Counted from the first letter of the stretch, positions 18,967 through 55,420 are shown. The stretch: 64,000 bases of DNA from Lentisphaeria bacterium (GCA_041690595.1 JAWLHB010000008.1:124001-188000); one strand, 5' to 3'. The notes: generated by a model not told the origin, from the letters alone. Translations and numbers: made by a program.

Positions 18967-18982
18967 GAGGAAGTCCTTGCGT

Positions 18983-24709: not shown

Positions 24710-24769
24710 GAATTTCAATAAATAAAACAATAAATATACTATTGAAATTCGATTTTAAGATAGTAAACT
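24710..24769 (+). promoter_or_regulatory. AT-rich promoter/operator of LacI-2: inverted repeat GAATTTCAATA-N19-TATTGAAATTC overlapping TTGAAA-N16-TAAACT
   Basis: Perfect 11-bp arms at 24710-24720 and 24740-24750; -35 at 24742-24747; -10 at 24764-24769. Confidence 0.55.
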
Positions 24770-24802
24770 GTAATAAGTTGAATCGAAAAAGGGAGTCAGC
24801 GA

Positions 24803-25864
24803 ATGGGGACAGTTACCTTAAAAGACGTGGCCGAATCAGCGGGTGTGTCGGTATCTACAGTATCTTTGGCATTGCGCGACGATTCCCGGATTGCCGCGGA
24901 GACACGAGCGGTGGTTTCGCGAACCGCGGAACGGCTGTCGTATTCTCCCCGCAGCCGCGGCCGTCCGACACGCGGTGTGGATGAACCACAGGCCACTCGC
25001 CGGTCTAACCGGATTGCGCTGCTGGTGCCGGGAATGCCGCGCGCCCTCATCAATGCGCCGGTATACATGGATATGTTACACGGGGTCGAGGCAGCAGTGG
25101 CGGAACAAGGCAAGACTCTGGTGTTGCGGCACCTGTTACCAGACGCGCCAATTCCCGTTTCCCTTTTCCCACAGAAGGTCGACGGCGTCGTCCTCTTTGG
25201 CCTATTTGCGGATGACGAGGATCTGCGAGACCAGCTCATGCGCATGCCCTGTGTGCAAACCATGGGTATACCTTTGCACGAGGCCGCGTGGGATCACGTC
25301 ACCTATGATAACAGTATCATCGGTGAGCTGGCAGCCAGTTACCTGCTCGAACGCGGGCACCGCACAATGGCCATGCTGGCGCCTGAAGCAAGTACCTCAG
25401 GCAGGCCAAGGCTTGACGTCACCGAGGGACGCCACGCTGGTTTTCGCCGGGTCCTGGAGTCCGCCGGCTGTACTCTGCACCTGCTATGGGACCAACCCTT
25501 GCTGAGGTTGACGCCAACCCATCAGGAGGTCGTACGAGAGACTTTGGATCGTATCATCGAACAATTGCTCAGCCTGAAGCCGCGTCCTACGGGCATCTTC
25601 TGCTCTTGCGATCAGCTCACCGCCGCCCTGCATCCGTTGCTGTTGGCGCGAGGCGTCGTGCCTGGACGCGACCTCGACATTGTTTCCTGCAACAACGAGG
25701 TCATTCTGCTGCAGAACCTGCACCCACGGCCGGCCACCGTGGACATTCATGCGCACGCCGTCGGCAAGCGCACCGTCGAACAATTGCTGTGGCGAATCGA
25801 ACAACCGAACGCGCCACGTTCCGTGATCACGCTCGAACCAACTCTCGTAACATGTAGTGAGTAG
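24803..25864 (+). CDS. LacI-family transcriptional regulator 2
   Basis: HTH '[22 protein letters not shown]'; C-terminus '[23 protein letters not shown]'. GGGAG RBS. Confidence 0.93.
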
Positions 25865-25896
25865 CGACAACCGACAATCGGCAATCGGAGCCCATC

Positions 25897-26790
25897 ATGA
25901 AGACCCAATACTCTATCCATACAGTTTCACATCGCCACTCCACGTGCCAAGGGTGGTTCACCTTCCTGAAGTCACGAGTGCCGGCAGCGTTTACGCTGAT
26001 CGAACTACTGGTCGTCGTGGCGATTATAGCCATTCTGGCTTCTTTTCTTCTGCCCGCACTTGCGCAGGCTCGCGGTAAAGCGAGGCAGATCTCCTGCATG
26101 AACAACCTGAAACAACTTGGCCTGGCCATGACCATGTATACGGACGTTAGCGACGATTGGTACCCAGCTGCGGCGATCGGCCACATGACCGGGGGATGGA
26201 ACAAAGCCTGGACGTGGGACGATGCTCTGGGCGGGTATGATGGTCGAGGCGCCCGCAATCCGAGCACCGACCAGTCGCGCTACTGGGGTACCGAGCCTGG
26301 ATACGACCCCGCGCCCATGTACCGCTGCCCTGAGGAGAAAACCATCGGATGGTCCAATTGTTCGCGCCGCTCCTACGCGATGAACGCTGGTGGACGCGAT
26401 TCCGCGAAGGTAGGCACGAACGACTACTTTCGCGGCATTGGCGGCATTGAGGACTCCAGCGCCGGGCTGTTCACCCAGAAGTCGGGCTCCGTACCGGATT
26501 CTTCAGACACCTTTCTGCTGGTCGAGGTGCGCAGTGACAATGGCACGTATGCCGCGCAGAACACCATGAGCGGTGGGCAGAACGGCAACTACAGCGCTGC
26601 CCATAACCCCTATGGACAGCAGAACGGTTCCTGGTACGACCTTCCCTGGCACAGCATGCAATGGAACTACCTCTTCTGCGACGGACACGCTCGCGTGATG
26701 AGGCCCGGGGATACGGTGGGTAGCGGAACGTTCGGGCAAGGCGGCGAACCGAGCGCCAAGGGCCACTGGACCACCGCCATGGGCGACTGA
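25897..26790 (+). CDS. Prepilin-type N-terminal cleavage/methylation domain protein with H-X9-DG motif (DUF1559/SBP_bac_10-like)
   Basis: '[46 protein letters not shown]', 'MYRCP', '[14 protein letters not shown]'. Confidence 0.93.
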
Positions 26791-26851
26791 GCCCACCACC
26801 AGAACCGCCACCCCGAGCCGAAAACCGCACCTGCAAGCGAGAATTCCCGGC

Positions 26852-27889
26852 ATGACTCATCACGAGCGCTTCTTTGCCACCCTGGCGCGTCAACCGGTCG
26901 ATCGCCCCGCCTGCTGGTTGGGCATGCCGACCACCGACGCGATGCCCGCCCTGTTGGCACACTTCGGCGTTGTGGATATGGAAGGGCTGAAACGTAAACT
27001 GGACGACGACGTCTGGCCGGTGGAGGTCCCGTATCACCATCCGCCGGCCAATCATATCGCCTGCGCCTTTGACTTCGCCAAGGACATTGGCGATTACGAG
27101 CACCGTACGCTCACCAGCCCCGGCTGGTTCGAAGACATGATCGATCCCGCCGCGGTGGAGGCGTTCCCCTGGCCGGATCCGCGCCTGCACATGGATCCCG
27201 CCGAATGCCGGGATGCAGTCATGGCTGCGCCCAGCGACTTCGTACGGCTGGGCGTGATGTGGTCGGCCAACTTTCAGGATGCCTGTGCGGCCTTCGGCAT
27301 GGAGAATGCTTTGATGACCATGATGACCGAGCCGGAGATGTTCCAGGCGGTCTATGATCGCATCACCCGCTTCTATCTCCAGGCCAACGCTATCTTCTAC
27401 GAAGCCACGCGCAGAGACTTGCAGACCGTGCTCCTCGGCAATGATTTTGGCAGCCAGACTTGCCTGATGCTCTCGCCTGAACGCATCCGTTCACTGGTGA
27501 TGCCCGGCATTCAGCAACTCATCGAGCAGGCTCACAGCTATGATCTGAAGGTGATCTACCATTCATGCGGCGCCGTCGCGGACATCATTCCCGACCTGAT
27601 CGCAGCCGGTGCAGACGTCATCCACCCGATCCAGGCCAAGGCCACCGGCATGCAACCGGATCGTCTGAAGCGGGACTTCGGCGAGCGCGTCGCATTCTGC
27701 GGCGCTGTGGACGCGCAGGAGCTGCTGGTAAACGGGCGGCCCGAAGAGGTCGCCGCGGTCGTTCGTCATCTGAGGGAGATCTTCCCGACAGGGCTCGTCA
27801 TTTCGCCCAGTCACGAAGCTATCTTGCCGGATATCCCGCCAGCGAACATCGACGCGCTGTTTCGAGCCGCGTCCAAGAACAATCGATAA
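26852..27889 (+). CDS. Uroporphyrinogen decarboxylase / MtaA-CmuA superfamily protein (URO-D-1)
   Basis: 'MTHHERFFATLARQPVDRP', 'FPWPDP', 'GNDFGSQTCLMLSPE', 'YHSCGAV', 'HPIQ', 'FCGAVDAQ', 'IPPANI'. Confidence 0.9.
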   Translation: MTHHERFFATLARQPVDRPACWLGMPTTDAMPALLAHFGVVDMEGLKRKLDDDVWPVEVPYHHPPANHIACAFDFAKDIGDYEHRTLTSPGWFEDMIDPAAVEAFPWPDPRLHMDPAECRDAVMAAPSDFVRLGVMWSANFQDACAAFGMENALMTMMTEPEMFQAVYDRITRFYLQANAIFYEATRRDLQTVLLGNDFGSQTCLMLSPERIRSLVMPGIQQLIEQAHSYDLKVIYHSCGAVADIIPDLIAAGADVIHPIQAKATGMQPDRLKRDFGERVAFCGAVDAQELLVNGRPEEVAAVVRHLREIFPTGLVISPSHEAILPDIPPANIDALFRAASKNNR

Positions 27890-27959
27890 AAATAGTAACT
27901 GACGAGGCTAATGCCACATGACTGACCGCAAACCGCACCATGGCGAGAGATCTGAGCAC

Positions 27960-30900
27960 ATGCGAGCCCGAAACCCTCACCTGCTCGCAGCCATTCTGCT
28001 TTCGGTAGCGGTCAGCCTGACCGCTACCGAAATGAAACGCATCCCCGCCAGCAGCTACCAGCGGAGCGACGGCAAGACGATCAAGGTCGATGCGTTCAGC
28101 ATGCAGAGCACGGAAGTGACCTGGTCGCACTACCAGGCAGTGAGGGCTTGGGGCGAACAGCATGGCTATGCGTTCGAGGAAGGCATCGGCCAGGCCACCT
28201 TGCCGGCCCAGAACATCATGTGGTACGACGCGGCAAAATGGTGCAACGCCCTCAGCGAGATGACCGGCAAGACACCCGTCTACCAACCCGCCGGAGACGT
28301 CTACAGGAAAGGCCGCATCGACCTGGTTGGCGCTGACGTCAAATGGGACGCTGACGGTTATCGCCTGCCCACGGAGGCAGAATGGGAGTACGCTTATCGC
28401 GCGGGCACGACCACGACATTCTACTGGGGCGACTACCCGCGCCAGGGCGTCCCGATTAATGCGGAACATGCCGCCTATCACTTCTGGGGCACCGACGAGA
28501 TCGATGGCGGGCCGTTGGCGGTTGCCTCCAAGAAGCCCAATGCGTTCGGTCTGCACGACATGGCTGGCAACGTCGAGGAATGGGTGTGGGACCGCTACGC
28601 CATCGACTACGAGCAGGTCGGCACCGATAATCCGCATGGACCGGACGCCGGACACTGGCGCGTCATGCGCGGCGGCAGCTTCGTCATCGACCGGCTCTTC
28701 ACCGCCGACACGCGGCACCCGAGCTATCCATTCTGGATCAACTGCGATACGGGCTTCCGCATTGCCTCCAGCGATCCGGCCGCGGATGCCACGAAACTGG
28801 CAGCCATCGAAACCTTGCCGCTCCTGCCCAACGATGTCAATCCCTTCACTGAGCCACTGGTCGTGCTCGACATTCGCGAGCCGACGGACAAGGCCGCCTG
28901 CGAACGCCTGATCCCGCTGCTCGACCTGAGCCACCCGAACCTTACCGCCGTGTGCGCCGCCTATGAAGAGCAGCAATACGCCGCCGCCCTGACGGCCCTG
29001 CGCGACCTGCTTGTCCCTCGCCTGAAAGCCAGTCATCTCGAACCCATACAAAGCAACTACGTGAACAAAGATGAAGCCGACAAGTGGTTGGCGATCCACC
29101 AGGAGAAGCGCTCCATCCGCTGGGCCGGACCCGGCACGGATCTGGCGGTCTCCTGGGACTACTGCGTCAACACCCATCTGGCTAAAGCGTGGGCACGCTG
29201 GCCGGAGAAAACCGAGTACGCCGACGCCTTCTTCTGGATGCTCGACGATGTCGTACGCCGGGCAAAGCCCATCTGGAACCGTCTGACCAAGGCCGAAAAG
29301 GGCTCCGGCGGCCAGCCGCGCGACAGCTTCTACATGTTCATCGGCTTCGATGGGGGACATCCGTTGCTGCCGTTTGATAATCTGGCCTGGATGCTGCGTC
29401 ACGGTTACCCGGAGGCGGACGTGCCGCCGCGCATCCTGGCCGATACCCTCTCCTACGCGATTACCGACTGCCTTGGCGCCGGGTTGCAGGACGACCGCGG
29501 CAATGTCTCCAACCAGGTATGGGGCAATGCCATGGCCATCATCGAGTTCGCTCAGCTCTTCCCGGAGGTGAAGGACGCCGCCGAACTGCGCGCCGAAGGT
29601 ATCCACCGTGTCCGCAAAGCCGTGGGCACCGTCATGCCCGACGGCACCGACCTGGAAGCGTCGCTGAACTACAACATGCGCCTGTTTGGCGACCGAAAAA
29701 AGCTTAACAACCTCTTCCCCGACCGCGACAACTGGCCGGAGTGGCTCGTCGAGCTTAATCGCCGCACCGACTATCGCTATTACATGTACGCCTCACTGGC
29801 GACACCATTTGCCACCTATCCAGCCGTCGGTAATCAGCAGCCAACCGATGTCCGCGCTCGCAAGTATCTTAAGCAGCACGTGGCCGATGGCGATCTCGAC
29901 GGGCTGAAGAATGCCATGACGCAGCTGCTCGCGTCCGTCGACGAGCGCCCTGTGGCCGGCTCCGAGCCGGCCTTTACCTCCGTCGGCCTGCCGCACGGCG
30001 GCTACTACGTTCAGCGCTCCGGCTGGACACCGGACGACCTCTACCTCTTCATGCGCTCCAGCCGCGACGGTGTCGGCCACGGCCACCACGACAACAACAG
30101 CATCCAAGTGGCGGCCTATGGCGCGTGGTTGCTGCTCGACAGTGGTTCGCCAGCCTACGGTGCGCGCCACCTGCCGGACCACCAGAAGAAATACGTGCAC
30201 TACTTCGGTGCGCCCCGCATCGGTCATATCTTCATGGCCAATGGCCTGTCGGTAGACGGTCTCGTCCAGGGAGCCCCAGCAGTCAAACCGGCCAACACCA
30301 CCGCCGGCTTTGAGACGCCCCGGCGCAACCTGTTGCACCACTCCGCCCAATTCGACCTCACCGAGGGCGTCTACGACGGCGGGTTTCACTCTGAACCTCC
30401 GGTCAGCGATAAGAGCATGGCAAAACTGGTCGACGATTACGGCATCGACGAATGCGCCGAGATCATCGCCTACAACACCAGGCTCAAACGCGAAGGCGAA
30501 CGAAAGCTGCGCGCCGTTCACCGGCGCCTCGCCATCTTCCTCCGTCAGGAAAAATTCTGGGTGCTGGTCGACGAGATAGACGGCGGCAGCGAGTACATCC
30601 AGACCTGGAACTTTCCGCCCGTCGACCGCGGGCTGAACCACACCACGTACTTTCTCGAGCCTAGCGACGAGGATCTCTACTATGGCAAACAGATAACGCA
30701 GGGCTACACGCCCAGTGAAGTGCGCAGCGACGAAACCAGGAAGATGATTGCCACGGTCAGCCACTACCGGCCCAACCTTGGCATCCTCAACTTCAATCCC
30801 GAGCCCGTGCGTTACACCCAGCACTACGGTGACATGTTCCCCTTCCGCGGTTGGCAAAGCTTCGGGATTGCCGGCGAGAAGGTGCCCGCCGTGCAGATGG

Positions 30901-31355
30901 AGGGTGCTTGGCGCGGCGACACGCCCATGGTCACCGCTCTCTATCCCATCGCCAAACGAGGCGGCCGCGACAGCACCCTCGATGCCGGCCTGGAAGGCTT
31001 CGCGGACCTCAGCGGCGACGACATCTCCGGCTTCACCTTCACCGGTAAGACGTCCTCCATCACCGTCCTGGCCGCACGCGAGCCCGCCATGCTCACCGCC
31101 GGGACGATCTCGGCAACCGCCACGTTCCTGCTGGTTCGCCAAGACGCAATGGGCAACCTGACCGGAATTGTCCTGGGGGCTGCCTCCCTGACCAATGCCG
31201 ATCGACCGATGCCGATAGTCAGTCCAGATTTTGAATTCAGCCTGCCCGCTGAAAGCGGAACCTTGGAACCTGGTGTTATCCCTATCCGACCACCGGAAAC
31301 CTTCCGTTGGCAGGACAATGGCGCTGGGCAATTGACGCCGCGGTATCAAGACTAA
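27960..31355 (+). CDS. Secreted modular protein: FGE-sulfatase/SUMF1-like domain plus heparinase II/III-like lyase core
   Basis: Signal peptide MRARNPHLLAAILLSVAVSLTA (alternative start 27918). FGE motifs 'TEVT', 'YRLPTEAEWEYA', 'PNAFGLHDMAGNVEEWVWD', 'RGGS', 'GFR'. Lyase motifs 'PDGTDLEASLNY', 'GGYYVQRSGW', 'GHGHHDNNSIQVAAYGAWLLLDSG'. Confidence 0.85.
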   Translation: MRARNPHLLAAILLSVAVSLTATEMKRIPASSYQRSDGKTIKVDAFSMQSTEVTWSHYQAVRAWGEQHGYAFEEGIGQATLPAQNIMWYDAAKWCNALSEMTGKTPVYQPAGDVYRKGRIDLVGADVKWDADGYRLPTEAEWEYAYRAGTTTTFYWGDYPRQGVPINAEHAAYHFWGTDEIDGGPLAVASKKPNAFGLHDMAGNVEEWVWDRYAIDYEQVGTDNPHGPDAGHWRVMRGGSFVIDRLFTADTRHPSYPFWINCDTGFRIASSDPAADATKLAAIETLPLLPNDVNPFTEPLVVLDIREPTDKAACERLIPLLDLSHPNLTAVCAAYEEQQYAAALTALRDLLVPRLKASHLEPIQSNYVNKDEADKWLAIHQEKRSIRWAGPGTDLAVSWDYCVNTHLAKAWARWPEKTEYADAFFWMLDDVVRRAKPIWNRLTKAEKGSGGQPRDSFYMFIGFDGGHPLLPFDNLAWMLRHGYPEADVPPRILADTLSYAITDCLGAGLQDDRGNVSNQVWGNAMAIIEFAQLFPEVKDAAELRAEGIHRVRKAVGTVMPDGTDLEASLNYNMRLFGDRKKLNNLFPDRDNWPEWLVELNRRTDYRYYMYASLATPFATYPAVGNQQPTDVRARKYLKQHVADGDLDGLKNAMTQLLASVDERPVAGSEPAFTSVGLPHGGYYVQRSGWTPDDLYLFMRSSRDGVGHGHHDNNSIQVAAYGAWLLLDSGSPAYGARHLPDHQKKYVHYFGAPRIGHIFMANGLSVDGLVQGAPAVKPANTTAGFETPRRNLLHHSAQFDLTEGVYDGGFHSEPPVSDKSMAKLVDDYGIDECAEIIAYNTRLKREGERKLRAVHRRLAIFLRQEKFWVLVDEIDGGSEYIQTWNFPPVDRGLNHTTYFLEPSDEDLYYGKQITQGYTPSEVRSDETRKMIATVSHYRPNLGILNFNPEPVRYTQHYGDMFPFRGWQSFGIAGEKVPAVQMEGAWRGDTPMVTALYPIAKRGGRDSTLDAGLEGFADLSGDDISGFTFTGKTSSITVLAAREPAMLTAGTISATATFLLVRQDAMGNLTGIVLGAASLTNADRPMPIVSPDFEFSLPAESGTLEPGVIPIRPPETFRWQDNGAGQLTPRYQD

Positions 31356-31396
31356 CTCGAAGAGGCCATCAGGGAATAAAAGGAAACCAAACCAAG

Positions 31397-34300
31397 ATGC
31401 ACACAACGAAACGTTTACTCTTGCTCGGCGTCGGCGCATTGCTGCTCGCCAACTCCATGCTCGCCGCGGCCGAAGATTCGGGGCAAGGACTGTCTAAGAA
31501 GCATCAGGCCGTCACCGCCATGCAACCGGTCGGCTATTGGCCGGCGGACGATGGCGTGAGCGACGTGCTGCATGATCTCTCACCGACCGGGAATCATGGG
31601 AAGATCAACCACGTCCCCTGGAATGGCGAGAAGAGATTACTCCACTTCACCGGCGCCTACCAATGGCTGGAGATTCCCAAACACAACGCCTACCAGACCC
31701 CGGCATTCTCCATGGGTGGGTGGGTGTTCTTTCGCTCCGACGTCATCGGTAGCGGCTGGGTCAATCGGCAGGGCATGCTGCTGATCGGCAACCGCCATTG
31801 GCTCAACGGCGTCGGCGTGCAGCTCTGTATCCGCAAACAGGAAACGATCGATGTGGTCAGCGACGGCACGGAAGACGTGATGGGAACCAGGCTCTTTGCG
31901 AGTTCCAAGAACGACGTGCGGGTGGAGCGAGCCTACGGCAGCCCCAACTTGGCAATCGGCAAATGGCATCATGTGCTCTACACCTTCGAACCCGAAAAGC
32001 AGCTCAGCGGGACGCCTGCCTCGCCCAACCTGGCGCCCTCCGCGACAGTGACCGCTTCGAATAACGATGGCCACCACAGCCGCGCGCCACGTAATGCCAT
32101 CGACGGAAATCCAGAGACCCACTGGATCTTCACGCCGGGTGCCGGGCCGGAAGCGGACACGCAGAAGTGGATTCAGCTCGACTTACCCCAGGAAACCGCG
32201 ATCAATCGGATTCGGTTGGTCAACCGCACAGGCAGCACCGACAACCTCAGGGCCGGCAAGCTGCATTTCAGTGACGGCAGCTCCATCGAGATACCAAACC
32301 TGGCCGAGGAATGGGATGCTCTCTTTGCGGACAAGATGGTGAAGTGGGTACGGTTCGAAGCTACCGAAAGTCATGGCACCGGGCCGGGCCTGACTGCGTT
32401 CGAAGTCTACAAGGAGGATTTCACGGTCTATCAGGAGGAAGGCGTCATCACCAACCCGCTTCGTGGTGAGACGATAACCGGAACTGGCAGGCTCTATCTG
32501 CACGGGCAGGTGATCGCCGAGAAAAAGGGCATTTCCTACAAACCCGCCGCCGCCAATCTGCAGATCGGCAACGATGCCTACTGGTGGCACCAGATGGTCA
32601 GCAAGTCCGGCTCGGTGGACGGCGCGGTGCGGGACATGGTCTGGTTCGACCGCGCGCTTTCCGGCGAAGAAGTGGCACACCTCCACGAAGCAACCAAACC
32701 CTCGGTAACGCCGGTTCTCTACGATAACACTGTGATTGTTCTGGACGGACGCGCCATCACGGTGAACGATCTGGCCTCCCTGCCGCCGACAACCCGCCGG
32801 ACCGCACTTCTGCTTTTCGGCCGCAAGGACTTGGCAACACTGCAGCCCTTGGTTGATTCCTTCCTGCCAATCCTGATCGCGGCTCTGGACGAGCCAAACT
32901 GCCAACTGCAGGCCATTCAATTGCTGCTCAAACTGGATCATGAAGCGACCCATGCAGCGCTGAGAAACGCCCTGCCCACGCTAATCGCCGCCGTGCAGGA
33001 TCAAGGAAAATCGCAGCAAGAGCGGGCCGACGCGGCCTTGGCTCTGGCCGCCATGGGCAAGGCCGCCGCCGATGCCGTGCCGGCGCTGGCTGAGACCCTC
33101 GACAAGCTCGTCACGAATGACGGTATTCAACCGCCACGGGTCGAGGAATTGCTGCGCAACGCCCTCACCCGAGCCTTGCTGGATATCGCACCGAACCATG
33201 AACGGGCTCAACACGTGATCGACCGAACTTTTGCCGGACCGCTGATGAAGACGGTTGACCTAACCAACTCAGCGCTTGCCAAGGCAACCAGCGCCAGCGA
33301 CCTGCGAGCTTTGATTGAAGCCGGAAAGCATCTGGAGGCCATGGACATCTATCGCAAGCTGCATCGTGACGAGCGTGAGTACTTCTTCAGCTACAGAGCG
33401 CCCCACCAGCTCGGCGATTACACAGCCACCGCACATTTCAATGGCGCCACCTACAAAGTGGGCACAGGCATTGCATGGCAAGGCGTCGAGAAGGTAACGG
33501 CGGAGGACTTTAAGGCCGTCGTCGCCGAGCAGGCCAGGCAGTACCCCGCCGCCAAGGCATGGCGCCAACCCGACGATGAGCACCTCTACCGGGTGCCGAT
33601 CACCAAGATCGGCGCCGACGGCGAGGCGCATACCGTCTATCTTGAAGGCCATAACTTCATTCTCGACGGCACCGACGCCAAGTGCCGCGGTTGGTCGATC
33701 TTTGTTGACGAGCTTGGCTACATCCATCTGATGGGCGGACAGCACAATGCGCCCAACCCCGATCACTACATCCCAGGCAGTTGGGAAGCGATGGGCGTTT
33801 CCCGCGACAGGAAGAATGACGACTACCCACTGCAAATGTACTGGGTTTCCAGCGAACCCGAGAGCATTGATTCGTTCAAGTTCGCCGGGCAACGAAGCAA
33901 TTCCCAGGCGATTCCTGCCTCGTACTTGAACTACATGGTCATCCTGCAGAGCCTTCGCAACGAAACGTTCATGTATGGCCGCGCGGATGCTTTCGGCTGG
34001 CAATGCTGGGGCATGTTCCGCTATGATGCCTCCACAAAGCGCTGGACACCTGTCGGTGGCGATCCGTATGATCTGATCGAATCCGCCCGCCGCCACGATG
34101 CGACATGGCTCAAGTACCTGCACGATCCGGTCCGCGGTTCGGTGCCCAAGGAACCCAGCGACATCCGCCGCCTGGTCTGGGCCTGGCAGCCGCCATTCTA
34201 CAACTTCTGCCGCGACGACTGGGGTGCTCGTTTCGACAAGACCGGCCGCATGCATGTGCGCATGACCATCTCCGGTCTCGACGGCGCCGGCTATGTGCGG

Positions 34301-35759: not shown

Positions 35760-35827
35760 TTCCGCCCCCAACCGGTGAAGTACGACCGCTCGCCTTGCAA
35801 AAAAAGCAGGAAGAATGAGGATCAGGA

Positions 35828-37147: not shown

Positions 37148-37203
37148 TAATTTCATAATTTCCAAACTTACATCTTGAAATTAATCGGTGTGTTGCGTAT
37201 ACT
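37148..37203 (+). promoter_or_regulatory. Promoter/operator of LacI-3: TTGAAA-N17-TATACT with inverted repeat TAATTTCA-N20-TGAAATTA, probably leaderless
   Basis: -35 at 37175-37180 and -10 at 37198-37203. The ATG is 6 nt later with no SD. IR arms at 37148-37155 and 37176-37183. Confidence 0.65.
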
Positions 37204-37209
37204 TTTTTC

Positions 37210-42904: not shown

Positions 42905-42918
42905 TTGGTGAGAATCCT

Positions 42919-45513: not shown

Positions 45514-45538
45514 ACCGACGAGAACAAGGAGAGTTGAG

Positions 45539-47110: not shown

Positions 47111-47186
47111 GACTTTTGCATACAGAACATACCATGAATCATCTCTTTCTCGATGGATTCCGGGCTAGTGTCATGGAGGCGTTTTA

Positions 47187-48122: not shown

Positions 48123-48135
48123 GGAATGTCTGGCA

Positions 48136-49686
48136 TTGAGTAACGCACCGGCAGGAATCCTGTTTTTCTTTCTCGACCAACTATCCGCTTGTTGGCTGGA
48201 GGCGGGCGTCGAACGGTTAGCTCTGCCCAATATCAAGCGGCTCCAGAAGCTCGGCACCACGTTCAGCAACGCCATCACCAGCAACCCAGTCTGCTGCCCC
48301 GCCAGAGCCACGGTGGCGACTGGACTGACAAGTCGGCAGCATGGCGTGCTGGAAAATGGTTACCAACTCGATCCATCCCTGCCGACGTTCATGAGGACGT
48401 TGCAGAACGCGGGCTGGCGGACCGGTGCGTTCGGCAAGGTGCATTTTCATCCGCATTTTGCCGGGCTTTATCCGGACTACGAGCCGTTCGGTTTCGATGT
48501 CACCCACATCACCGAAGACCCGCGCGGCGGCGAATGGCTGGATTGGGTCGAGCGCGAGCATCCCGCGCACTATGAAGCCGCCCTGGTCACCATCTGGGCA
48601 CCGCAGGTACCGGAGTTTGAGAGCTATGGCCCGAAGAAGCTGAACTTACGCGAGCGCATCGAAGAGTTACGCAGCTCTTTCGGGTGGGCAACCGAGGAAT
48701 TCCCTGACAATGATGCATGGACACACGCACTGCCGTTTCCCGAAGAGGTCTCGCAGACCGCCTGGATCACTGGGCACGCCTTGGACTTTCTGCGTGAGCT
48801 TTCACCTCAGCAGCGCTTCATGGCGCAGGTCAGCTATGTACAGCCACACGGGCCCTATTGCCCGCCGGCTGAGTACCTTCGTATGGTGGATCCTGACACG
48901 CTTCCGGAACCGGCTCCTGCCGAGTGGCTGGAAGACGCGCATGCCCCCTCGTATTTCAAGGACCGGAAGCCGTCTGACGGTAATTGGCGCCACGCACGAC
49001 GGTGCTATTTTGCCGATCTGCTGCATCTCGATCACCAGCTTGGACTGATTCTCGATCAACTCGAAACGATGAATCGCCTCGACTCAACCTCAATCATTCT
49101 GCTGGCCGATCATGGCGACCTGCTTGGCGACCATGGCTGTTACGGCAAAGAAGAGCGGCATTACGACGCCTGCATCCGGGTGCCGCTGATCATCACCGGG
49201 CCAGGTGTAAGAGGCGGTCAAATCCGCACGGAGCTGGTGCAGCTCGAAGACATCTGCCCGACCATTCTGGAAATGACGCGTGCAGACCTGCCGGCCATGC
49301 CCAAGAGCGGGCCCTATCTAAAGATGGCCGCGGCGGAGATCCCCCAGCTTCCCGGCCATTCGCTGCTGCCGCTCTGCCGTGGCGAAACGCCGGCGAACTG
49401 GCGCCACGCTGCCTACTGCGAAAGCTACAACCGCATCTCGTCCGCCAACCCTGGTGACTGGGCTCGAACCATCCGCACCGAACGCTACCGCTATACCCTT
49501 TACCCCACTGGCAACGGCGAACAGCTCTTCGACCTTTTGGAGGACCCCGACGAACAAAACAACCTGGTCGCCGACCCCGAACACACCCGAATCCGCACCG
49601 ATCTGCGCGACCAGCTCCTGGAACTGATCGTCCTGCAGGATTACCCAAAACCTCGCCGCGACCTGTACGCGCTGGGAGTGCACTAA
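48136..49686 (+). CDS. S1 (formylglycine-dependent) sulfatase, Cys-type
   Basis: 'FLDQL', CxPxR 'CCPARATVATG', 'FGKVH', 'QPHGP', 'ADHGD', 'RVPLII', 'LFDLLEDPDE'. No signal peptide. Confidence 0.93.
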   Translation: MSNAPAGILFFFLDQLSACWLEAGVERLALPNIKRLQKLGTTFSNAITSNPVCCPARATVATGLTSRQHGVLENGYQLDPSLPTFMRTLQNAGWRTGAFGKVHFHPHFAGLYPDYEPFGFDVTHITEDPRGGEWLDWVEREHPAHYEAALVTIWAPQVPEFESYGPKKLNLRERIEELRSSFGWATEEFPDNDAWTHALPFPEEVSQTAWITGHALDFLRELSPQQRFMAQVSYVQPHGPYCPPAEYLRMVDPDTLPEPAPAEWLEDAHAPSYFKDRKPSDGNWRHARRCYFADLLHLDHQLGLILDQLETMNRLDSTSIILLADHGDLLGDHGCYGKEERHYDACIRVPLIITGPGVRGGQIRTELVQLEDICPTILEMTRADLPAMPKSGPYLKMAAAEIPQLPGHSLLPLCRGETPANWRHAAYCESYNRISSANPGDWARTIRTERYRYTLYPTGNGEQLFDLLEDPDEQNNLVADPEHTRIRTDLRDQLLELIVLQDYPKPRRDLYALGVH

Positions 49687-52600
49687 TGGTTTTATCTGTC
49701 TACACTGCAAGATCGGCCATGCCGTGTCGGGGTCTGCTCGTCCTCCTTTGGTTCCTGTGCGGCTTGGCTTACGCCACACCCGAACCTTTCGCCGATGGCG
49801 AACGGGTGCTGTTTCTGGGCGACAGCATCACCCGTGATGGCTCCTGGCATTCGCAGATCAGTCTGTTCTACGAAACCCGTTTCCCAGAGCGCCGCCTGAG
49901 TTGGCAGAACGCGGGGATCAGCGGTGACACCTCCGGCGGCGCCCTGCAACGCGTGCAGTGGGACGTGCTCGACCGTGAACCGAACACAGTGGTCATCATG
50001 CTGGGCATGAATGATGTGGCACGGGACGATCTGCCCGGGGAGATCGGCGACGCTGAACGCGTTGCGGAATACGCGAAGAACATGCGGACACTGGTCGACA
50101 TACTCCTGGCCGCCAAGATCAAAATCATCCTCTGCACCCCCAGCCCGTACGACGCTGCGGTCAATGTGGCAGCAGCGTCCCACCCTGCCGCGAACCTGGC
50201 GCTCACCCACTGCGCTGACATCTGCCGCGAGCTGGCGGCGGAATTGGATCTGCCCCTGGTCGATTTCAACGGCCCCATGAATGCCATTGCCGTCGATTTC
50301 CAGCAAACCAACCCGAGCTTCACGCTCATCGGCGGCGACCGCATCCATCCGGGGACCCTGGGCAGTACGGTCATGGCTCACCTTTTTCTCGCGGCACAAG
50401 GTGTACCAGGACTGATCTCGGGCACGGTGATTGATGCCGCCAAAGGCGAGCTGACATCCATAGAAAAAGCGACGGCGACCGACCTCCGGGTGGTGGACGG
50501 CGCCACGATCAGCTTCACGCTCATGGAAGCGGCATTGCCCATGCCATTTGCCAGCACGTCCCGCCTGGCCCTGCGGTTGATGCCTGAGAATGAACTGCTC
50601 CAAGAGCTCGACCGACTCCCACGTCCGGCTGATACATACACTGGCTCCGGCTGGGATGCCGTGCCCTGGCGCGACCGGCTGCACCGGCAGATGCTGACCG
50701 TGACTGGCCTGACGGAGGGCGAGTATGAGCTGCTGATCGATGACCAGCCGGTCGGACGTTGGTTCGCCGATGACCTGGCTACCGGCGTCAATCTTTCCGG
50801 CCTGCGCACCACGCCACAATATCAACAAGCTGAAAAAATGGCCGCAGCCCACAACACGCGACATCGAGCCGCCTCCTGGGCTCCGCGCATGATCGCCTTC
50901 ACGCGCCGCTTTACGCTCGAACCTGCCGGGGTGGATGAAGGTGACCCGACCGCGGTCCACTCCTTCCTGGAGGCGTTGATCAACGATTCGACGGCGGCGA
51001 ACCGGGTCGAACTGGGCGGTTACGCCTTGACAATGGCGAAAAAATACCTGGAGTTCAAACCCAAAGAGGCTGAAATCAACGCCGCGATCGCCGCTGCCGA
51101 TGATGACGTCCACCAGCTCAACCAGCCCGTCCCGCACCGATACCTGCTGCGTCCAGTCGCGCACCCGCTCAGCGTCGAGCAGCGCCTGGCGGCCTTCACT
51201 GCCCGTCACGATCCGGAACAGGTAGCGGCGGTGGCCAAAGACTTTCTTGACCTGCTCGTGCTGGATCATGCCGGCTTGTTGCGCACCAACCTGCGGCGAC
51301 GCCCTTTACTGCAGAACGTGGCGGATCTGGTCAAGGAGGGCAATCCCGTCGACGTCTTGGAAGCTTACCGCGACTACGTGTTCGACAAATTGCGCAATGG
51401 CTCGGTCTATGCCCTGCCGGAGGACGTGCTCGATCCCTACAAAGGGCTCATCAACCCAAAGGAAAATGACAAGGCTCTGGCCAGGGCTGAAGAGCTTATG
51501 GCGGGCAGGATCGTGGCAGACGGCGTCCTCATGCAGCCGGGAAGTGTCTGGCTACCGCGTCCCAAGGAAGGGACCACGGGGGCGGCCAATCCGTGGACGC
51601 CGAAGGCTTTTGAACCCCTCGCCGCTGCCTACCTGCTGACCGGTGACCAGCGCTATCTCGACCAGTGGATCGCCTATCTGGATGACTGGGCCATGTTCGA
51701 AAACACCGATGAGGCGATTCGTGCCACGGATATCTCCGACAGCGACAGCCATGCCGTGAGCCAGCTGCTGGCGGTGTACAAAACGCTGAGCGGCATCGCC
51801 CGGCTGCAGCCGGCCGCACAAGCCGATTTCCCCGCCGACAGTCTGGCCCGCATCCTTACCAAGTGCATACGGGTTTACCTCCCCCTTTCCATCCTCTACC
51901 ACGAGAGCAATCCACAGAACTGGACGCCAGGAAGCACCGCCTGGCAGATGCAGGTCGCGGCCCTGATCGATGAATTCATAGCCGCCGAGACCATTTTCGC
52001 CCGAGCCCGGCACCGTCACGAGAATTATGGCACGATTCAGAATCTGCCCGACGGCGGAGAAACTGAACACGCGCTCTGGTACAACGCCCACTACTTTGAC
52101 GGCGCCATCGAAGCCATTGAACACGTGGACAACCGACGCAAGGTTCAGTCATGGACGCGCCCTTCGTGGGAGGCGCCGGTTATGGACGCCAACTGGGAAC
52201 ACGCTCAACGGGATAAGATCATCGACCGCGCCCGCTATTTCCTGCAGATGTTGACGCCGCAATGCCAATACCCGATCGGCAACCGCAGCGACATGCGCAC
52301 GCTGCCCGACTGGAAGTCGGGTGCGCTGGTGGAGTACGCCATCCTCAACGGCGCCCCCGACCTGCGGGTGCTGCTGAATACCCTCGGCGGCAATACCGCC
52401 TCCGGACTGCCGGACTTCACCATGTCCGCGTTTCCCTACAGCGGCAGCTGGATCATGCGCAACGGCTGGGACAAGGAATCCGGCTACGCCCATTTCTTCT
52501 GTTCCCCCTACCCTGTCGGTGGCCACGCCTTCCGCGGGCTCAAGAGCAACAACGGCTTCTGGCTCTCCAGTGGCGGGCAAGACCTGCTGGTCACGGGCGG

Positions 52601-54365
52601 CTTCGGCAGTTACTCCTACGACCGCTCCCCGCTGCGAGTGGACGGCAACGAGCAGTTCACGCATGCCGGCATTGGCAATCCGGGGATGAACAAGAACCAC
52701 AAAGGTTTCGGCATCGCCTACGTCGATCCGCAGCCGCCTCCATGGCGTGCGCATTCCAGCGAGACTTTCGACTTTGCCGAAGGTGTGTACGAGGGCCCCT
52801 ACGGCGACTTCGTCGAGGATCATCACGACAACAAGGACTACCGCACCGGCTTCCTGGCTGAACGCGCCCGGGAGGTCATCACCGGCGTCACGCATCATCG
52901 GCAGATCTTCCACCTCAAGAAGCCAAACCTGTGGCTCGTAGTCGACCGGCTTCAGAGCGAACAGCCACACGACTACACCCTGGACTGGTACCTGCCGGCG
53001 CCGCTCTTGCCCGGGGAAACCACCAAGAGCCGCTACAAGCCCAAGACATTCGCTGACGAGGCGATCCTTATCGACAACGCCACCCAGACGGTTGCCAGCG
53101 CCGCTCCTGACATGCCCAACCTTCGTATCCGCCATTTCGGCCCGAAACTGGCCCTCAGCAAGCCCCCCGAGCGTGGCGATTGCATCAAGAACGACTACAC
53201 CTATCACTACAAGATGTACGATTTCTGGCGGGTGAGCGGTACTTGGCGGAGCCAAGGCAACGATGTGGTCATCTCGCTCATCGAAGCCATTCCGGAAGGA
53301 GGTACATCGCAAGTCGGCAACACTGAAGAGACCGATAGCGGCTTTGAAGCTACCCTGGCCAATGGCAAGACACTTCGCTTCAAGACTGCCGCCGACGGCA
53401 GCTCCGCGCTGTCACTCGGCGACCGTGGCTTGATTCTGGGAGCGGAGAGCTATGAGTTCCATCGGGGGAATTGGCTGACAACCAGAAAAGAAACCATCCA
53501 TGCGCCGATAGCTCCTGTGTCCATAGAGCCCAGGCGAACGCTGATTATGGGAGATGAACCGGTAACGCTGACTTGCGCCACGCCTGGCGTCGACATCCGC
53601 TATACGCTCGACGGCAGTGAGCCGACGATCCACTCGCCGCTTTACAGCGCACCCTTCACCGTAGACAATAGCGTCACCGTCAAGGCGCGCGCCTTCCGGC
53701 CGGGCCTCTCGCGGACCCCGTCCAACCTGGCTGGCACCCACGCCACCGTCACCCGGGTGGCGCGCTATGACCTGGCTGAACCACTAGCTCCAATCGCGCC
53801 GCTTGACGACAAGCACTATCAGCCCGGGCTCGAGGCGGAGTATGACGAAGGCGACTGGAAAGATCTGGTCTTCTTCCCGGAAACGGTCTCTCCGGTAAGA
53901 ACGATGAACGTTCGGCACCTTTTTGACCGCTGCCAGCCGGACCCGGAAAAGGTCTTTGGCTGGACCTACTCCGGCTTCCTGGCCATTCCCGAAGATGGCA
54001 TCTACACCTTTCACGCCCCGCTGGAACTGGTCACCTCACCGCAGGAGCCCGGCTACAGTCTGCGCCTCTTTGTTGGCCAGGAGATGCTTTTCAACAAGCG
54101 TCCTTCCGGTCAGCTCAACGAATGGTATCCCGCCGCCAGCCGCCACGCCTACGGCACCTGGAGCCTGGCCCTTCGGAAGGGGATGCACCCGTTCGCAGTC
54201 ATCTATGTCGATTACCGCACCGATGCCATGGAGCGCCTGAATCACCCGGGCTTGCGGCTGAACTCCATCTGGGATGGCATGGTACCCACGATCCGCGTCT
54301 CGGGGCCAGGGATCAAACCGCAAGTCATACCGAACGCATGGTATTACAGAGGGAGCAAACCATGA
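49686..54365 (+). CDS. Secreted modular protein: SGNH/GDSL esterase, heparinase II/III-like core, FN3-associated/CHB_HEX_C domain, PA14-like domain
   Basis: 'FLGDSIT', 'NAGISG', 'GMND', 'DRIHP'. Core 'QNWTPG', 'PDGGETEHALWY', 'FPYSGSWIMRNGW'. '[12 protein letters not shown]' and 'YSGFLAIPEDGIYTF'. Clear paralogue of 39062-42904 over its C-terminal ~1050 aa. Confidence 0.87.
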   Translation: MVLSVYTARSAMPCRGLLVLLWFLCGLAYATPEPFADGERVLFLGDSITRDGSWHSQISLFYETRFPERRLSWQNAGISGDTSGGALQRVQWDVLDREPNTVVIMLGMNDVARDDLPGEIGDAERVAEYAKNMRTLVDILLAAKIKIILCTPSPYDAAVNVAAASHPAANLALTHCADICRELAAELDLPLVDFNGPMNAIAVDFQQTNPSFTLIGGDRIHPGTLGSTVMAHLFLAAQGVPGLISGTVIDAAKGELTSIEKATATDLRVVDGATISFTLMEAALPMPFASTSRLALRLMPENELLQELDRLPRPADTYTGSGWDAVPWRDRLHRQMLTVTGLTEGEYELLIDDQPVGRWFADDLATGVNLSGLRTTPQYQQAEKMAAAHNTRHRAASWAPRMIAFTRRFTLEPAGVDEGDPTAVHSFLEALINDSTAANRVELGGYALTMAKKYLEFKPKEAEINAAIAAADDDVHQLNQPVPHRYLLRPVAHPLSVEQRLAAFTARHDPEQVAAVAKDFLDLLVLDHAGLLRTNLRRRPLLQNVADLVKEGNPVDVLEAYRDYVFDKLRNGSVYALPEDVLDPYKGLINPKENDKALARAEELMAGRIVADGVLMQPGSVWLPRPKEGTTGAANPWTPKAFEPLAAAYLLTGDQRYLDQWIAYLDDWAMFENTDEAIRATDISDSDSHAVSQLLAVYKTLSGIARLQPAAQADFPADSLARILTKCIRVYLPLSILYHESNPQNWTPGSTAWQMQVAALIDEFIAAETIFARARHRHENYGTIQNLPDGGETEHALWYNAHYFDGAIEAIEHVDNRRKVQSWTRPSWEAPVMDANWEHAQRDKIIDRARYFLQMLTPQCQYPIGNRSDMRTLPDWKSGALVEYAILNGAPDLRVLLNTLGGNTASGLPDFTMSAFPYSGSWIMRNGWDKESGYAHFFCSPYPVGGHAFRGLKSNNGFWLSSGGQDLLVTGGFGSYSYDRSPLRVDGNEQFTHAGIGNPGMNKNHKGFGIAYVDPQPPPWRAHSSETFDFAEGVYEGPYGDFVEDHHDNKDYRTGFLAERAREVITGVTHHRQIFHLKKPNLWLVVDRLQSEQPHDYTLDWYLPAPLLPGETTKSRYKPKTFADEAILIDNATQTVASAAPDMPNLRIRHFGPKLALSKPPERGDCIKNDYTYHYKMYDFWRVSGTWRSQGNDVVISLIEAIPEGGTSQVGNTEETDSGFEATLANGKTLRFKTAADGSSALSLGDRGLILGAESYEFHRGNWLTTRKETIHAPIAPVSIEPRRTLIMGDEPVTLTCATPGVDIRYTLDGSEPTIHSPLYSAPFTVDNSVTVKARAFRPGLSRTPSNLAGTHATVTRVARYDLAEPLAPIAPLDDKHYQPGLEAEYDEGDWKDLVFFPETVSPVRTMNVRHLFDRCQPDPEKVFGWTYSGFLAIPEDGIYTFHAPLELVTSPQEPGYSLRLFVGQEMLFNKRPSGQLNEWYPAASRHAYGTWSLALRKGMHPFAVIYVDYRTDAMERLNHPGLRLNSIWDGMVPTIRVSGPGIKPQVIPNAWYYRGSKP

Positions 54366-55420
54366 TTCATCAGAATGTCGACCTGCATAACGTGCTTGAG
54401 CTTGAACCCGCTGCCGGCGGCGGGGTACATCTGCGCCGCATTCCGAAAGCGGTGCGGGACTGCCTGAGCCCCCTTGGACGCATGGTGTCGCAGGAATCGT
54501 GCGGCTGCGAACTGCGCTTCGTCACCGACGCGGAAAGCATCCGTGTGTCGGTCTCGTCCATGCCTTCGACGCTGGCGCCCTGGGAGCTTCACAACCAGGA
54601 CGTGTTCATCTTCAAAGGCGCCTTCTTTCACTCGCATGTGCGGCTTGAGCCGGGTAAGGTCAATCACCTTAACCTGGCGGACATCGGCGGCGGGGTGAAG
54701 AACGCGTTTTTGGGCCTCAAGTCGGAGGTGCGCGATACCGATTACTTCCACCACAACGTCTGGCGCATCATGTTCGGACGCTACCCGGCAGTCCTTCATG
54801 AGGTCGACACCTACGGCTATCCCTTGCGCCCGCCGACACCCAAGGAACTGCCGAAGGCGCGTATCCTCTTCTACGGCTCCTCGATCACCAATGGCGCCTC
54901 GACAACGCTCTATCACCTTTGCTACGCTCAGGTCACGGCCCGACTTCTGCAGGCCGATTGCCTTAACCACGGACTCTCCGGCGCGTGTCTATGCGAGCGG
55001 GAAGTCGCCGACTACCTGGCGGTGCGAGAAGACTGGGACGCCATCGTACTGGAGCTTGGCGTGAATATGCGCGGCAGCTTCACGCCGGACCAATTCCAGG
55101 CGCGCAGCCACTATTTGATCGAGCAGATCGTCCAGCGGCATCCGGCCAGACCGGCCGTTCTCATCACCATCTTCCCCAACGCCCAGAGCCCGCGGAACGC
55201 GCATCAGGCAGACGACACGCAACGCCGCCAGGAAGCCTTCAACACGATTCTGCGCAATACCGTCGAAGAGCTGCGGCACCCGCACCTGCACCTGATCGAA
55301 GGCACCGATATTCTCACCGACTTCACCGGCATCACCAAGGATCTCATCCACCCCAGCGACTACGGCCACCTGGCGATGGGCACCAACCTGGCCTTACGCC
55401 TCCGGCCCTTGATGCAGTGA
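54362..55420 (+). CDS. SGNH/GDSL hydrolase family protein
   Basis: ATGA overlap with the upstream gene; 'FYGSSITNG', 'NHGLSG', 'ELGVN', 'DLIHPSDYGH'. Confidence 0.88.
   Translation: MIHQNVDLHNVLELEPAAGGGVHLRRIPKAVRDCLSPLGRMVSQESCGCELRFVTDAESIRVSVSSMPSTLAPWELHNQDVFIFKGAFFHSHVRLEPGKVNHLNLADIGGGVKNAFLGLKSEVRDTDYFHHNVWRIMFGRYPAVLHEVDTYGYPLRPPTPKELPKARILFYGSSITNGASTTLYHLCYAQVTARLLQADCLNHGLSGACLCEREVADYLAVREDWDAIVLELGVNMRGSFTPDQFQARSHYLIEQIVQRHPARPAVLITIFPNAQSPRNAHQADDTQRRQEAFNTILRNTVEELRHPHLHLIEGTDILTDFTGITKDLIHPSDYGHLAMGTNLALRLRPLMQ

Follow-up and report, generated by a model that had tools for sequence, protein, structure and literature searches.

Recurrent operons of a sugar regulator, a DUF1559-type pilin and a large secreted protein in a Lentisphaeria bacterium, with a possible role in glycan foraging

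We analyzed a stretch of 64,000 nucleotides (the window, G000:C8:124001-188000; JAWLHB010000008.1) from the genome of a Lentisphaeria bacterium (G000, GCA_041690595.1; 8.1 Mb, 97.0% complete, 3.1% contaminated), in which two cassettes each encode a LacI regulator, a type IV prepilin-like protein and very large lyase-like proteins. We found that both cassettes are copies of a genome-wide module, consisting of a sugar regulator, a DUF1559-type pilin and a large secreted protein similar to carbohydrate-active enzymes (CAZymes), in this order. A preliminary description of the window had read the cassettes as a pilin-based glycan-foraging system; here, this reading is weighed against three alternatives. 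Numbers preceded by G, C, L and f are our own labels for genomes, contigs, loci and families, and large proteins are named by the start of their genes.

Organization of the locus

The genes of the window were defined by open reading frame (ORF) calls, a Pfam scan and translations. The two cassettes, with the genes that follow them, are as follows (aa, amino acids; GH, glycoside hydrolase):

24710-24769: inverted repeat (24710-24750) over a sigma70-like promoter, -35 box at 24742 (repeat and promoter scan)
24803-25864, plus strand: LacI-2, the cassette 1 regulator (PF00356 and PF13377)
25897-26790, plus strand: pilin 1, 297 aa, DUF1559 (Pfam, translation, NCBIfam, predicted structure)
26852-27889, plus strand: URO-D/MtaA-CmuA-like protein (Pfam, NCBIfam)
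27960-31355, plus strand: secreted FGE-domain and heparinase III-like lyase (heparinase II/III), 1131 aa (PF03781, PF16889, PF07940)
31397-34522, plus strand: secreted LamG/F5-8/BNR-like protein, ~1040 aa (Pfam and ortholog loci)
34809-37078, plus strand: second URO-D-like gene (34809-35759) and a 402-aa protein (Pfam, NCBIfam)
37148-37203: inverted repeat (37148-37183) over a sigma70-like promoter, -35 box at 37175, 17-nt spacer, 10/12 matches
37210-38277, plus strand: LacI-3, the cassette 2 regulator, with an ATGA overlap with pilin 2 (Pfam, translation)
38274-39065, plus strand: pilin 2, 263 aa, a rare head type (translation, homolog searches)
39062-42904, plus strand: secreted protein of F5/8, divergent heparinase III-like core and Fn3-associated module, 1280 aa (Pfam, profile)
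42901-45513, plus strand: GH116 glycosidase (PF12215, PF04685)
45539-47110, plus strand: GH32 glycosidase (PF00251, PF08244)
47187-48122, plus strand: GH43-clan beta-propeller, family below cut-off (PF04616, E 1.2e-11; weak NCBIfam matches)
48136-49686, plus strand: sulfatase (PF00884)
49686-54365, plus strand: secreted protein of SGNH esterase, heparinase-like core and Fn3-associated module, 1559 aa (Pfam, homologs)
54362-55420, plus strand: SGNH esterase (Pfam, translation)

The order of LacI, prepilin and giant lyase-like protein occurs twice, as the preliminary description had it. The gene order given there for cassette 1 (LacI, prepilin, URO-D, FGE-heparinase) and its coordinates hold; the URO-D gene separates the pilin from the lyase, and the gap between LacI and pilin is 32 nt, without an ATGA overlap. 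In cassette 2, the LacI, prepilin and F5/8-heparinase genes are indeed joined by ATGA overlaps, at 38274-38277 and 39062-39065. Among the genes farther downstream, the GH116, GH32, sulfatase and SGNH assignments stand, whereas the GH117-like label is not confirmed; this gene encodes a GH43-clan propeller, for which Pfam GH43 stays below the cut-off. The SGNH esterase at 54362-55420 has a 65% ortholog between pilin and lyase in G020. The 402-aa protein has no Pfam or NCBIfam match. Neither a TonB-dependent transporter (TBDT) nor a SusD, PEP-CTERM or T9SS-tail family was seen among the 37 window ORFs scanned, in agreement with the preliminary description, and a search for RNA families in the window found none.

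The inverted repeats reported at the two cassette promoters are real (11-nt arms and a 19-nt gap at 24710-24750; 8-nt arms and a 20-nt gap at 37148-37183), but their cores are not equally spaced (25 vs. 20 nt). The core common to both is found 3 times in the window, compared to 0.55 expected, and 2 of 100 shuffles reach 3. Because the right arm of each repeat is the -35 box of a sigma70-like promoter and the spacing differs, the repeats are not called operators here; they could equally be promoter elements.

Recurrence of the module in the genome

We called 5869 genes in the genome with our own dicodon model, in which the starts are approximate. A local pilin profile yielded 205 prepilin-like frames; 202 of these mapped to genes, and 175 formed the core set (E < 1e-21, mature length 140-330). 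With the window regulators as seed, a second profile yielded 133 LacI/GntR proteins with a sugar-binding domain, and signal peptides were predicted by our own hydropathy heuristic.

A LacI/GntR regulator lies directly upstream and co-directional for 62 of 174 core pilins, compared to 56 of 5575 other genes (1.0%; odds ratio, OR, 55). For two similarly expanded families, the corresponding numbers of genes directly behind such a regulator are 0 of 74 (sulfatases) and 1 of 82 (URO-D proteins). Seen from the regulators, a pilin comes directly after 63 of 133 and lies within 3 genes of 100 of 133 (background 966/5667). Downstream, the next gene encodes a signal-peptide protein of 600 aa or more for 66 of 175 pilins vs. 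291 of 5563 other genes (5.2%), and a large secreted protein is found within 4 genes for 134/175 vs. 2226/5667. When the two sides are combined, a regulator at most 3 genes upstream or a big secreted gene at most 2 downstream accompanies 125/175 pilins, compared to 821/5667 others, and we counted 39 complete triples of regulator, pilin and a gene of 600 aa or more in the genome. This neighborhood check, which had been suggested in the preliminary description, finds the H-X9-DG genes enriched genome-wide behind LacI/GntR regulators and before large secreted CAZyme-like proteins.

The identity of the next gene was studied for 60 pilins drawn at random from the 126 eligible ones (co-directional, non-pilin next gene, outside the window), with Pfam matches at E <= 1e-5 counted by hand. 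Twenty next genes encode GH, polysaccharide lyase (PL) or carbohydrate-binding module (CBM) families, 2 encode sulfatases, 5 have DUF4838 only, 1 has DUF4861, 22 have no match and 10 have other matches. The 60 control genes, a sample of 160 genes in 20 regions distant from pilins, include 1 GH, two esterases, two sulfatases and one DUF4838 protein. Without matching for size, the contrast in GH/PL/CBM families is 20/60 vs. 1/60 (p = 3.7e-6). Sulfatases and URO-D proteins were rejected as pilin partners, since they are not enriched at +1 or +2, and co-evolution of regulators and pilin heads was rejected as well (rho 0.02 over 1828 pairs).

In the same sample, DUF4838 proteins follow 7/60 pilins and GH123-N proteins follow 8/60 (loci L096, L098, L105, L107, L109, L134 and L138). 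The DUF4838 and GH123-N proteins behind pilins are candidate new glycoside hydrolases.

Pilin family and fold

Both window pilins have a hydrophobic alpha1 helix with Glu5, and in both the N-terminal cleavage/methylation motif scores over the cut-off (PF07963, TIGR02532). Pilin 1 has a class III-type leader with Ala at -1, a DUF1559 domain and an exact H-X9-DG motif. Pilin 2, which is 35% identical to pilin 1 across 195 aligned positions, has Arg at -1 and the variant H-X10-DG; the label "H-X9-DG prepilin" of the preliminary description is exact for the first protein and not for the second. The H and the D of this C-terminal motif are invariant among orthologs, and their spacing differs between paralogs. 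The PF07596 score is 52.8 bits for pilin 1 and 19.4 bits for pilin 2, compared to a cut-off of 23.3, although pilin 2 carries PF07596 in precomputed data. Neither window pilin reaches TIGR04294, a 22-position model found in 14 genes of the genome, among the 150 of 327 candidates that were scored. Both are probably DUF1559 members, with pilin 2 falling short on two formal criteria.

In what follows, statements on cited papers refer to those parts of them that were accessible. The DUF1559 family is described as expanded and without known function (PMC8567305, PMC10632474, PMC4807772, PMC5352709, PMC2754498), with 68 paralogs in Planctopirus (PMC10632474) and 91 in Tuwongella, where they are often flanked by signal-peptide genes (PMC8567305). 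The link of DUF1559-like proteins to carbohydrate binding, which the preliminary description took for established, is not so in the texts consulted, which only repeat the Pfam label "solute-binding protein".

An AlphaFold2 model of pilin 1 (114 sequences; pLDDT 83.9, pTM 0.81) consists of a 51-residue helix (34-84) and a head rich in loops, in which a hairpin of the core bears the H..DG motif. In a VIA-align comparison, the top 18 rows are all type IV pilins, the best being 6xxd (Z 5.2, root-mean-square deviation 3.4, 122 aligned). Pilin 1 is, therefore, predicted to have the type IV pilin (lollipop) fold. Solved homologs of the pilin head found by sequence were rejected, as the match is restricted to the N-terminal helix.

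Lyase-like proteins

The 27960 protein resembles heparinase III (5jmd, E 4.8e-8) and appears to keep both the Tyr and the His motif, at positions that we take to be catalytic and that were read from the alignment to 5jmd. The 39062 family resembles heparinase III by profile only (4fnv, E 3.8e-5), and a single-sequence search of the PDB with the 39062 core gave no match. Of its 108 homologs, one is named "putative alpha-1,2-mannosidase" at the source. Tyr486 is invariant in the family, as is another His, and the position of the His motif is occupied by Arg in 88/98 sequences. Because the similarity is seen by profile only and Arg replaces the His motif, "lyase-like" is used as a fold-level label for this family. 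With the NCBIfam model HepC, the window proteins reach 31/700 bits at best, far below the cut-off. The 49686 protein is a paralog (~34%) of the 39062 protein with a conserved Fn3-associated C-terminal module, and the pair travels together in relatives. The substrate is likely to be an acidic, O-acetylated and possibly sulfated glycan.

None of the 66 large secreted proteins that follow pilins has a C-terminal helix or membrane anchor (0/66), 4 have lipoboxes, and no PEP-CTERM was found in the genome by regular expression. A common sorting tag was rejected: there are 15 similar tail pairs among the 66 proteins, nearly all within families.

Orthologous loci and other phyla

We searched 351 genomes of the class; the counts include G000. 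Of the pilins, the head of pilin 1 was matched in 11 genomes and that of pilin 2 in 4; of the large proteins, the 39062 core was matched in 7 genomes, the 31397 protein in 5 and the core of the 27960 protein in 3. A pilin occupies position -1 or -2 relative to the 39062 ortholog in 5/5 other genomes with intact upstream DNA: directly before it in G030, G131, G132 and G222, and with one SGNH gene between in G020. In G127, one contig ends in a regulator-pilin pair, and the 39062 ortholog starts another. The heads at this position resemble pilin 2 in three genomes, which are of the same genus and not independent. G030 has a pilin-1-like head, and those of G020 and G222 are unmatched; that is, at least 3 head types precede the same lyase ortholog (46-62% identity). 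Pilin-1-type heads go with varied partners, including an operon of a dehydrogenase and an SSF symporter in L002. As far as these comparisons go, head switching before one lyase would speak against a fixed protein partner. In the relatives of cassette 1 (G021, G212, G032, G175 and the planctomycete locus L002), the pilin is kept and subsets of its partners vary; orthologs of the 31397 protein with at least 50% identity adjoin pilins in 3/3 cases seen.

The layout of regulator, pilin and enzyme is weaker outside the source genome. In 80 fetched loci from several phyla, a regulator is directly upstream of the pilin in 11 of the 66 evaluable cases, and the gene directly downstream has 600 aa or more in 13 of 61. 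We also compared 31 genomes, with counts of 150 and 80 being lower bounds (at least). Pilins per Mb correlate with regulators (rho 0.68 over 31 genomes; 0.56, p = 0.07, by means of 11 families) and inversely with TBDTs (rho -0.62 over 31 genomes). The six genomes of family f32 have 0 TBDTs and from 59 to at least 150 pilins.

Filament machinery and prepilin cleavage

The search for PilB, PilD and secretin that the preliminary description had suggested found the assembly genes of type IV pili or type II secretion systems (T2SS) in the genome, including peptidase, ATPase, platform and secretin. There are six secretin matches and a single PilD, in which both domains are present, and 19 ATPases of the T2SSE family score above the cut-off. 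Eight of these ATPases are full-length PilB/GspE-like proteins, and most of the others are presumably of the PilT/PilU type, given their alignment coverage. Of two T2SS-type gene sets, Pfam confirms the operon on C53, and the set on C28 is assigned by gene order alone. A secretin-PilM-PilB operon on C7 starts with a DUF1559 pilin gene. Genes for O-antigen-ligase/TPR proteins are typical neighbors of major pilins (pilin-glycosylation loci). At C28:84267-85547, a pair of short family members that have the canonical Gly lies upstream of two such genes, which makes this pair a candidate for the filament backbone. The genome has four TBDTs, none of them with a pilin within 6 kb, and a PF07980 search found no SusD in the genome, which is 97% complete.

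Three other machine loci were observed. At C37:55102-65423 (L327), a secretin and GspE/PilB operon with weak GspM/GspC matches is divergent from a module of regulator, pilin and 1240-aa secreted protein. A cluster at C9:140885-148787 is Tad-like by gene order and separate from a PilB/PilB/PilT/PilC locus at C9:127312-133300. At C3:215713-220215 (minus strand; L262), a 1500-aa frame joins an ATP-binding cassette (ABC) exporter (membrane part and ATPase) to a secretin, with an internal lipobox-like site, and is followed by ExbB/ExbD. The orthologs in other genomes are frames of 561-897 aa without the ABC part, and L262 may reflect a lost stop or an assembly error; an ABC-secretin fusion as a trait of the lineage was rejected, since G000 is alone with it among 61 genomes.

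According to a review, Gly or Ala is the invariable last residue of the prepilin leader (PMC10191384). In the core set, Glu5 is kept in 174/175 pilins, and the residue at -1 is Gly or Ala in 30/174, compared to 89/870 for positions -2 to -6 (OR 1.8), Arg being the commonest. The minor pilins of four machine operons are without Gly/Ala at -1 in 13/13 cases; the two GspG-type majors keep Gly/Ala. In the fetched loci, Gly is found at -1 in 0/27 Lentisphaeria pilins and 13/13 Armatimonadota pilins, and 30/30 Verrucomicrobia pilins have Ala, Gly or Ser. Since the cleavage residue has drifted from the Gly/Ala rule, either PilD is relaxed in this lineage or the subunits work uncleaved. PilD itself (G000:C11:11189-12445, plus strand, L264) has an insertion of ~135 residues between the catalytic Asp motifs (spacing 205), found in several, but not all, families of the class. 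This insertion was rejected as a cause of the odd cleavage sites: the spacing is short (70) in two f32 genomes, G328 and G330, as it is in Verrucomicrobia.

Divergent operon and other genes of the window

The divergent ABC operon of the preliminary description is present, with LacI, SBP-permease, permease, dehydrogenase, two ATPases and GntR all recovered by ORFs, Pfam and translations:

14662-15771, minus strand: GntR regulator with sugar-binding domain, closing the divergent ABC operon (PF00392 and PF13377)
15893-18002, minus strand: two ABC ATPases, oligopeptide/oligosaccharide type (PF00005 and PF08352)
17947-19056, minus strand: 2-hydroxyacid dehydrogenase (PF02826)
18983-23391, minus strand: ABC permease and SBP_bac_5-permease fusion, 1105 aa (PF00496, PF00528)
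23417-24451, minus strand: LacI-1, divergent from cassette 1, start placed at the Met of the helix-turn-helix domain (PF00356 and PF13377, translation)

Orthologs of the dehydrogenase (46-51%) recur next to pilin-1-type genes in other genomes, and orthologs of the permease and the SBP-permease fusion (45-63%) are linked to cassette-2 lyases in L258, L270 and L277. The permease and the fusion are likely to import oligosaccharide products. Fusions of ABC components recur, namely the SBP-permease at 20074-23391 of the window and a GH42-like domain joined to a permease in L153 (G000:C3:267587-273180).

There are 82 URO-D/MtaA-CmuA-like paralogs in the genome, two of them inside the glycan locus of the window; as a guess, these proteins could O-demethylate methylated sugars. 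Elsewhere in the window are a DUF6493/DUF7825 protein followed by a SWIM zinc-finger protein (36-3471, plus strand), an RsbRD-N/HisKA_3 kinase adjoining a leucine-rich-repeat protein (8133-12386, minus strand), and, facing the end of the glycan locus, a multi-PAS PocR hybrid kinase of 1602 aa (55510-60318, minus strand).

Discussion

We propose, with a probability of roughly 45%, that each pilin is a swappable accessory subunit that joins a common, probably retractile type IV filament and catches the glycan of its own operon. The LacI protein would release the operon on breakdown products, and pilin and enzymes would be made together. The pilin would then join the filament of one of the genome's machines, with a backbone of short canonical pilins, for which the C28:84267-85547 pair is a candidate; its variable, loop-rich head would bind the polymer, and retraction would bring the polymer to, or through, a secretin. 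Sec-exported, anchorless lyase-like, esterase and glycosidase proteins would cut it, and the divergent ABC operon would import the pieces. The pilin step would resemble capture by SusC/D.

The closest published case is an alginate cluster of Verruconatronum alginivorum (pgaptmp_000046-60), with an alginate-induced 251-aa pilin that has 67 homologs (PMC13274419). This pilin is the most abundant protein of the cluster (0.513, vs. 0.021-0.111 for four lyases) and is at zero on other sugars (Table S3 of PMC13274419). By our own count, 2 of the 50 pilins of 215-280 aa exceed 0.05 in that proteome (two PulJ/FimT proteins left out), and a short pilin next to a PilT-annotated gene is also up on alginate (PMC13274419). 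It should be noted that the proteome comprises one replicate, with 89 PILIN-tagged rows and a column order that was inferred from fold changes (PMC13274419). In other lineages, dextran binds to planctomycete pili-like fibers and accumulates in the periplasm, by an uptake system called uncharacterized (PMC5394234), and a type IV-like pilus (MUL2) has been proposed for glycan attachment in Akkermansiaceae (PMC13174399). We found no description of a one-pilin-per-glycan-operon module in the searched literature, although subscription papers or preprint supplements could hold one; the main text of a study of planctomycete fucoidan breakdown, as far as accessible, mentions neither pili nor DUF1559 (PMC11685898).

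Capture by the pilins is favored because it would account for the absence of SusC/D, for the loose coupling to enzymes and for the high induced abundance in one proteome. The glycan-foraging reading of the preliminary description is partly supported: of the conditions that would have refuted it, neither a lack of enrichment next to regulators and CAZymes nor a lack of assembly genes was observed, and SusD is absent and TBDTs are scarce. Strict substrate specificity is weakened by the occurrence of different heads before one enzyme ortholog.

Several further observations weigh against capture. Similar heads have a common downstream homolog in just 4/12 paralog pairs, homologs of the 31397 protein (35-46%) lack a nearby pilin in L281, L282 and L285, and the pilin 1 orthologs in L253 and L254 lack the window partners. 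When next genes and controls are matched for size (>=550 aa), the CAZyme contrast is not significant (18/45 vs. 4/25, p = 0.059), and the 22/60 next genes without a Pfam match count here, too. The inverse correlation of pilins with TBDTs is only -0.40 (p = 0.22) over 11 family means, and G018 and G019 are rich in both. For the fold of pilin 1, the VIA Z of 5.2 is middling, and Foldseek gave nothing at E <= 0.001. The cleavage residue is a difficulty for the core set, in which Gly/Ala is in the minority, and for pilin 2 with its Arg. The support from Verruconatronum would amount to co-induction with an alginate operon in a similar locus, in one replicate and for a pilin taken by its PILIN tag; the second pilin above 0.05, also of 251 aa, is constitutive, and the authors propose T2SS enzyme export as the role of the pilin (PMC13274419). 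Finally, pilins are depleted near multi-pass membrane proteins (at least 6 helices; 31/175 vs. 1691/5667), which, together with the tie to large secreted proteins, fits a secretion helper.

Such a helper could be an operon-specific pseudopilin that recruits the huge enzymes to a T2SS or type IV pilus for export, or holds them on the filament, with the glycan cut outside. The data agree with this role almost as well, though we consider it less likely than capture. The strongest downstream signal is an adjacent large protein with a Sec signal (66/175 vs. 5.2%), often with a stop/start overlap, and 134/175 pilins have a large secreted protein within 4 genes; the proteins are without C-terminal anchors (0/66) and PEP-CTERM; two T2SS-type gene sets exist (C53 by Pfam, C28 by gene order); the non-canonical -1 residue is common to 13/13 machine minor pilins; and T2SS export is what the Verruconatronum authors suggest (PMC13274419). 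However, one lyase ortholog (46-62%) stands behind at least 3 head types that are unrelated, and a single head type is found with different proteins; the 66 large proteins have no common C-terminal signal; and a downstream operon is absent for 44/175 pilins, while for 24 others it contains no predicted secreted protein (by the heuristic). In addition, the induced Verruconatronum pilin is 5-24 times as abundant as its lyases (PMC13274419), and export leaves the scarcity of outer-membrane importers unexplained.

It is improbable that the pilins stay uncleaved and unpolymerized, as single-pass inner-membrane proteins with a periplasmic glycan-binding or scaffold head ("SBP_bac_10") that feeds periplasmic enzymes and importers. 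The weak excess of Gly/Ala at -1 over the flanks (30/174 vs. 89/870, OR 1.8), the 0/27 Gly in Lentisphaeria vs. 13/13 in Armatimonadota, the SSF symporters that adjoin some pilins (L002, L035) and the partitioning of the Tuwongella family with detergent fractions (PMC8567305) would agree with such a state. Glu5 is nevertheless kept in 174/175 pilins, and the machine minor pilins of the genome drift alike at -1; the members in Verrucomicrobia, Planctomycetota, Armatimonadota and Omnitrophota mostly have Gly, Ala or Ser; one member heads a secretin-PilM-PilB operon; and pilins are depleted near multi-pass membrane proteins. That the pilins are co-regulated variable surface adhesins, for particle attachment or evasion of phages and predators, without a role in glycan capture or export, is quite improbable: the heads are highly diverged (most paralog pairs are unalignable) and exchanged between loci, and Rhodopirellula DUF1559 genes respond to salt, cold and heat (PMC2754498), but the slot directly behind the regulator is kept across families and phyla, and heads are 40-57% conserved in distant genomes.

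Capture by a shared filament could be carried further, to a speculation that we rate as unlikely in its full extent: Lentisphaeria, and likely other members of the Planctomycetota-Verrucomicrobiota-Chlamydiota (PVC) group and Armatimonadota, would replace a library of SusC/D by a library of pilins, with one retractile machine and more than 100 glycan-specific pilins, the polysaccharide being reeled through the secretin as DNA is by competence pili, and the Lentisphaeria subunits being processed or assembled without the Gly/Ala rule.

The passage of glycans across the outer membrane of PVC bacteria without SusC/D is an open question, and DUF1559 is among the largest PVC families without a function; the module of regulator, pilin and enzyme ties both questions together and makes each testable per locus. 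It also flags hundreds of unannotated proteins of 800-1500 aa as candidate new CAZymes (22/60 sampled had no Pfam match), and the lineage-wide loss of the Gly/Ala cleavage residue, machine minor pilins included, challenges a rule stated as invariant.

Comparison with known systems

The large proteins can be compared to heparinase III (PL12), to which the catalytic domains of the 27960 and, by profile, the 39062 proteins are homologous; the window proteins differ in carrying extra modules and missing the HepC cut-off, and the 39062 family has Arg for His. The pilins have the N-terminal motif, the C..NLKQ, CP and H..DG motifs and the large expansion of the DUF1559/SBP_bac_10 proteins of PVC bacteria (PF07596; TIGR02532 and TIGR04294), but here they occupy a fixed slot between a sugar regulator and a secreted enzyme, and most have no Gly/Ala at -1.

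The Verruconatronum alginate cluster is similar in its heparinase II/III lyases, LacI, hydroxyacid dehydrogenase, SSF symporter and nearby SBP-permease fusion (PMC13274419). It is unlike the window in that its pilin was read as a PulG-like pseudopilin for export and not generalized (PMC13274419), and its enzymes need not be orthologous to those of the window. In Akkermansia, MUL2 likewise implicates type IV pilus genes in glycan attachment and uptake in Verrucomicrobiota; it is, however, a single four-gene machine locus that includes a PilM (MUL2B) and an archaeal-like pilin (MUL2A), whereas here ~175 dispersed pilins are each in a regulated operon of their own (PMC13174399). The window has no MUL2-type locus, and PilM-type operons are found elsewhere in the genome.

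Dispensable filament subunits, such as ComP and PilV, which are both among the top VIA fold matches, also add a function along a filament. Unlike the pilins studied here, of which there are ~175 under sugar regulators, they number a handful per genome, have canonical leaders, and are not known for glycan capture.

Polysaccharide utilization loci (PULs) of Bacteroidota are defined by a SusC/D pair. As in a PUL, a regulator, secreted CAZymes, a sulfatase, esterases and an importer are found here in one locus, with one variable envelope protein each; unlike in a PUL, there is no SusC-SusD pair, the regulators are of the LacI/GntR type, and the variable protein is a pilin without a paired transporter gene. 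The locus in the window would work like a PUL without being a SusC/D PUL.

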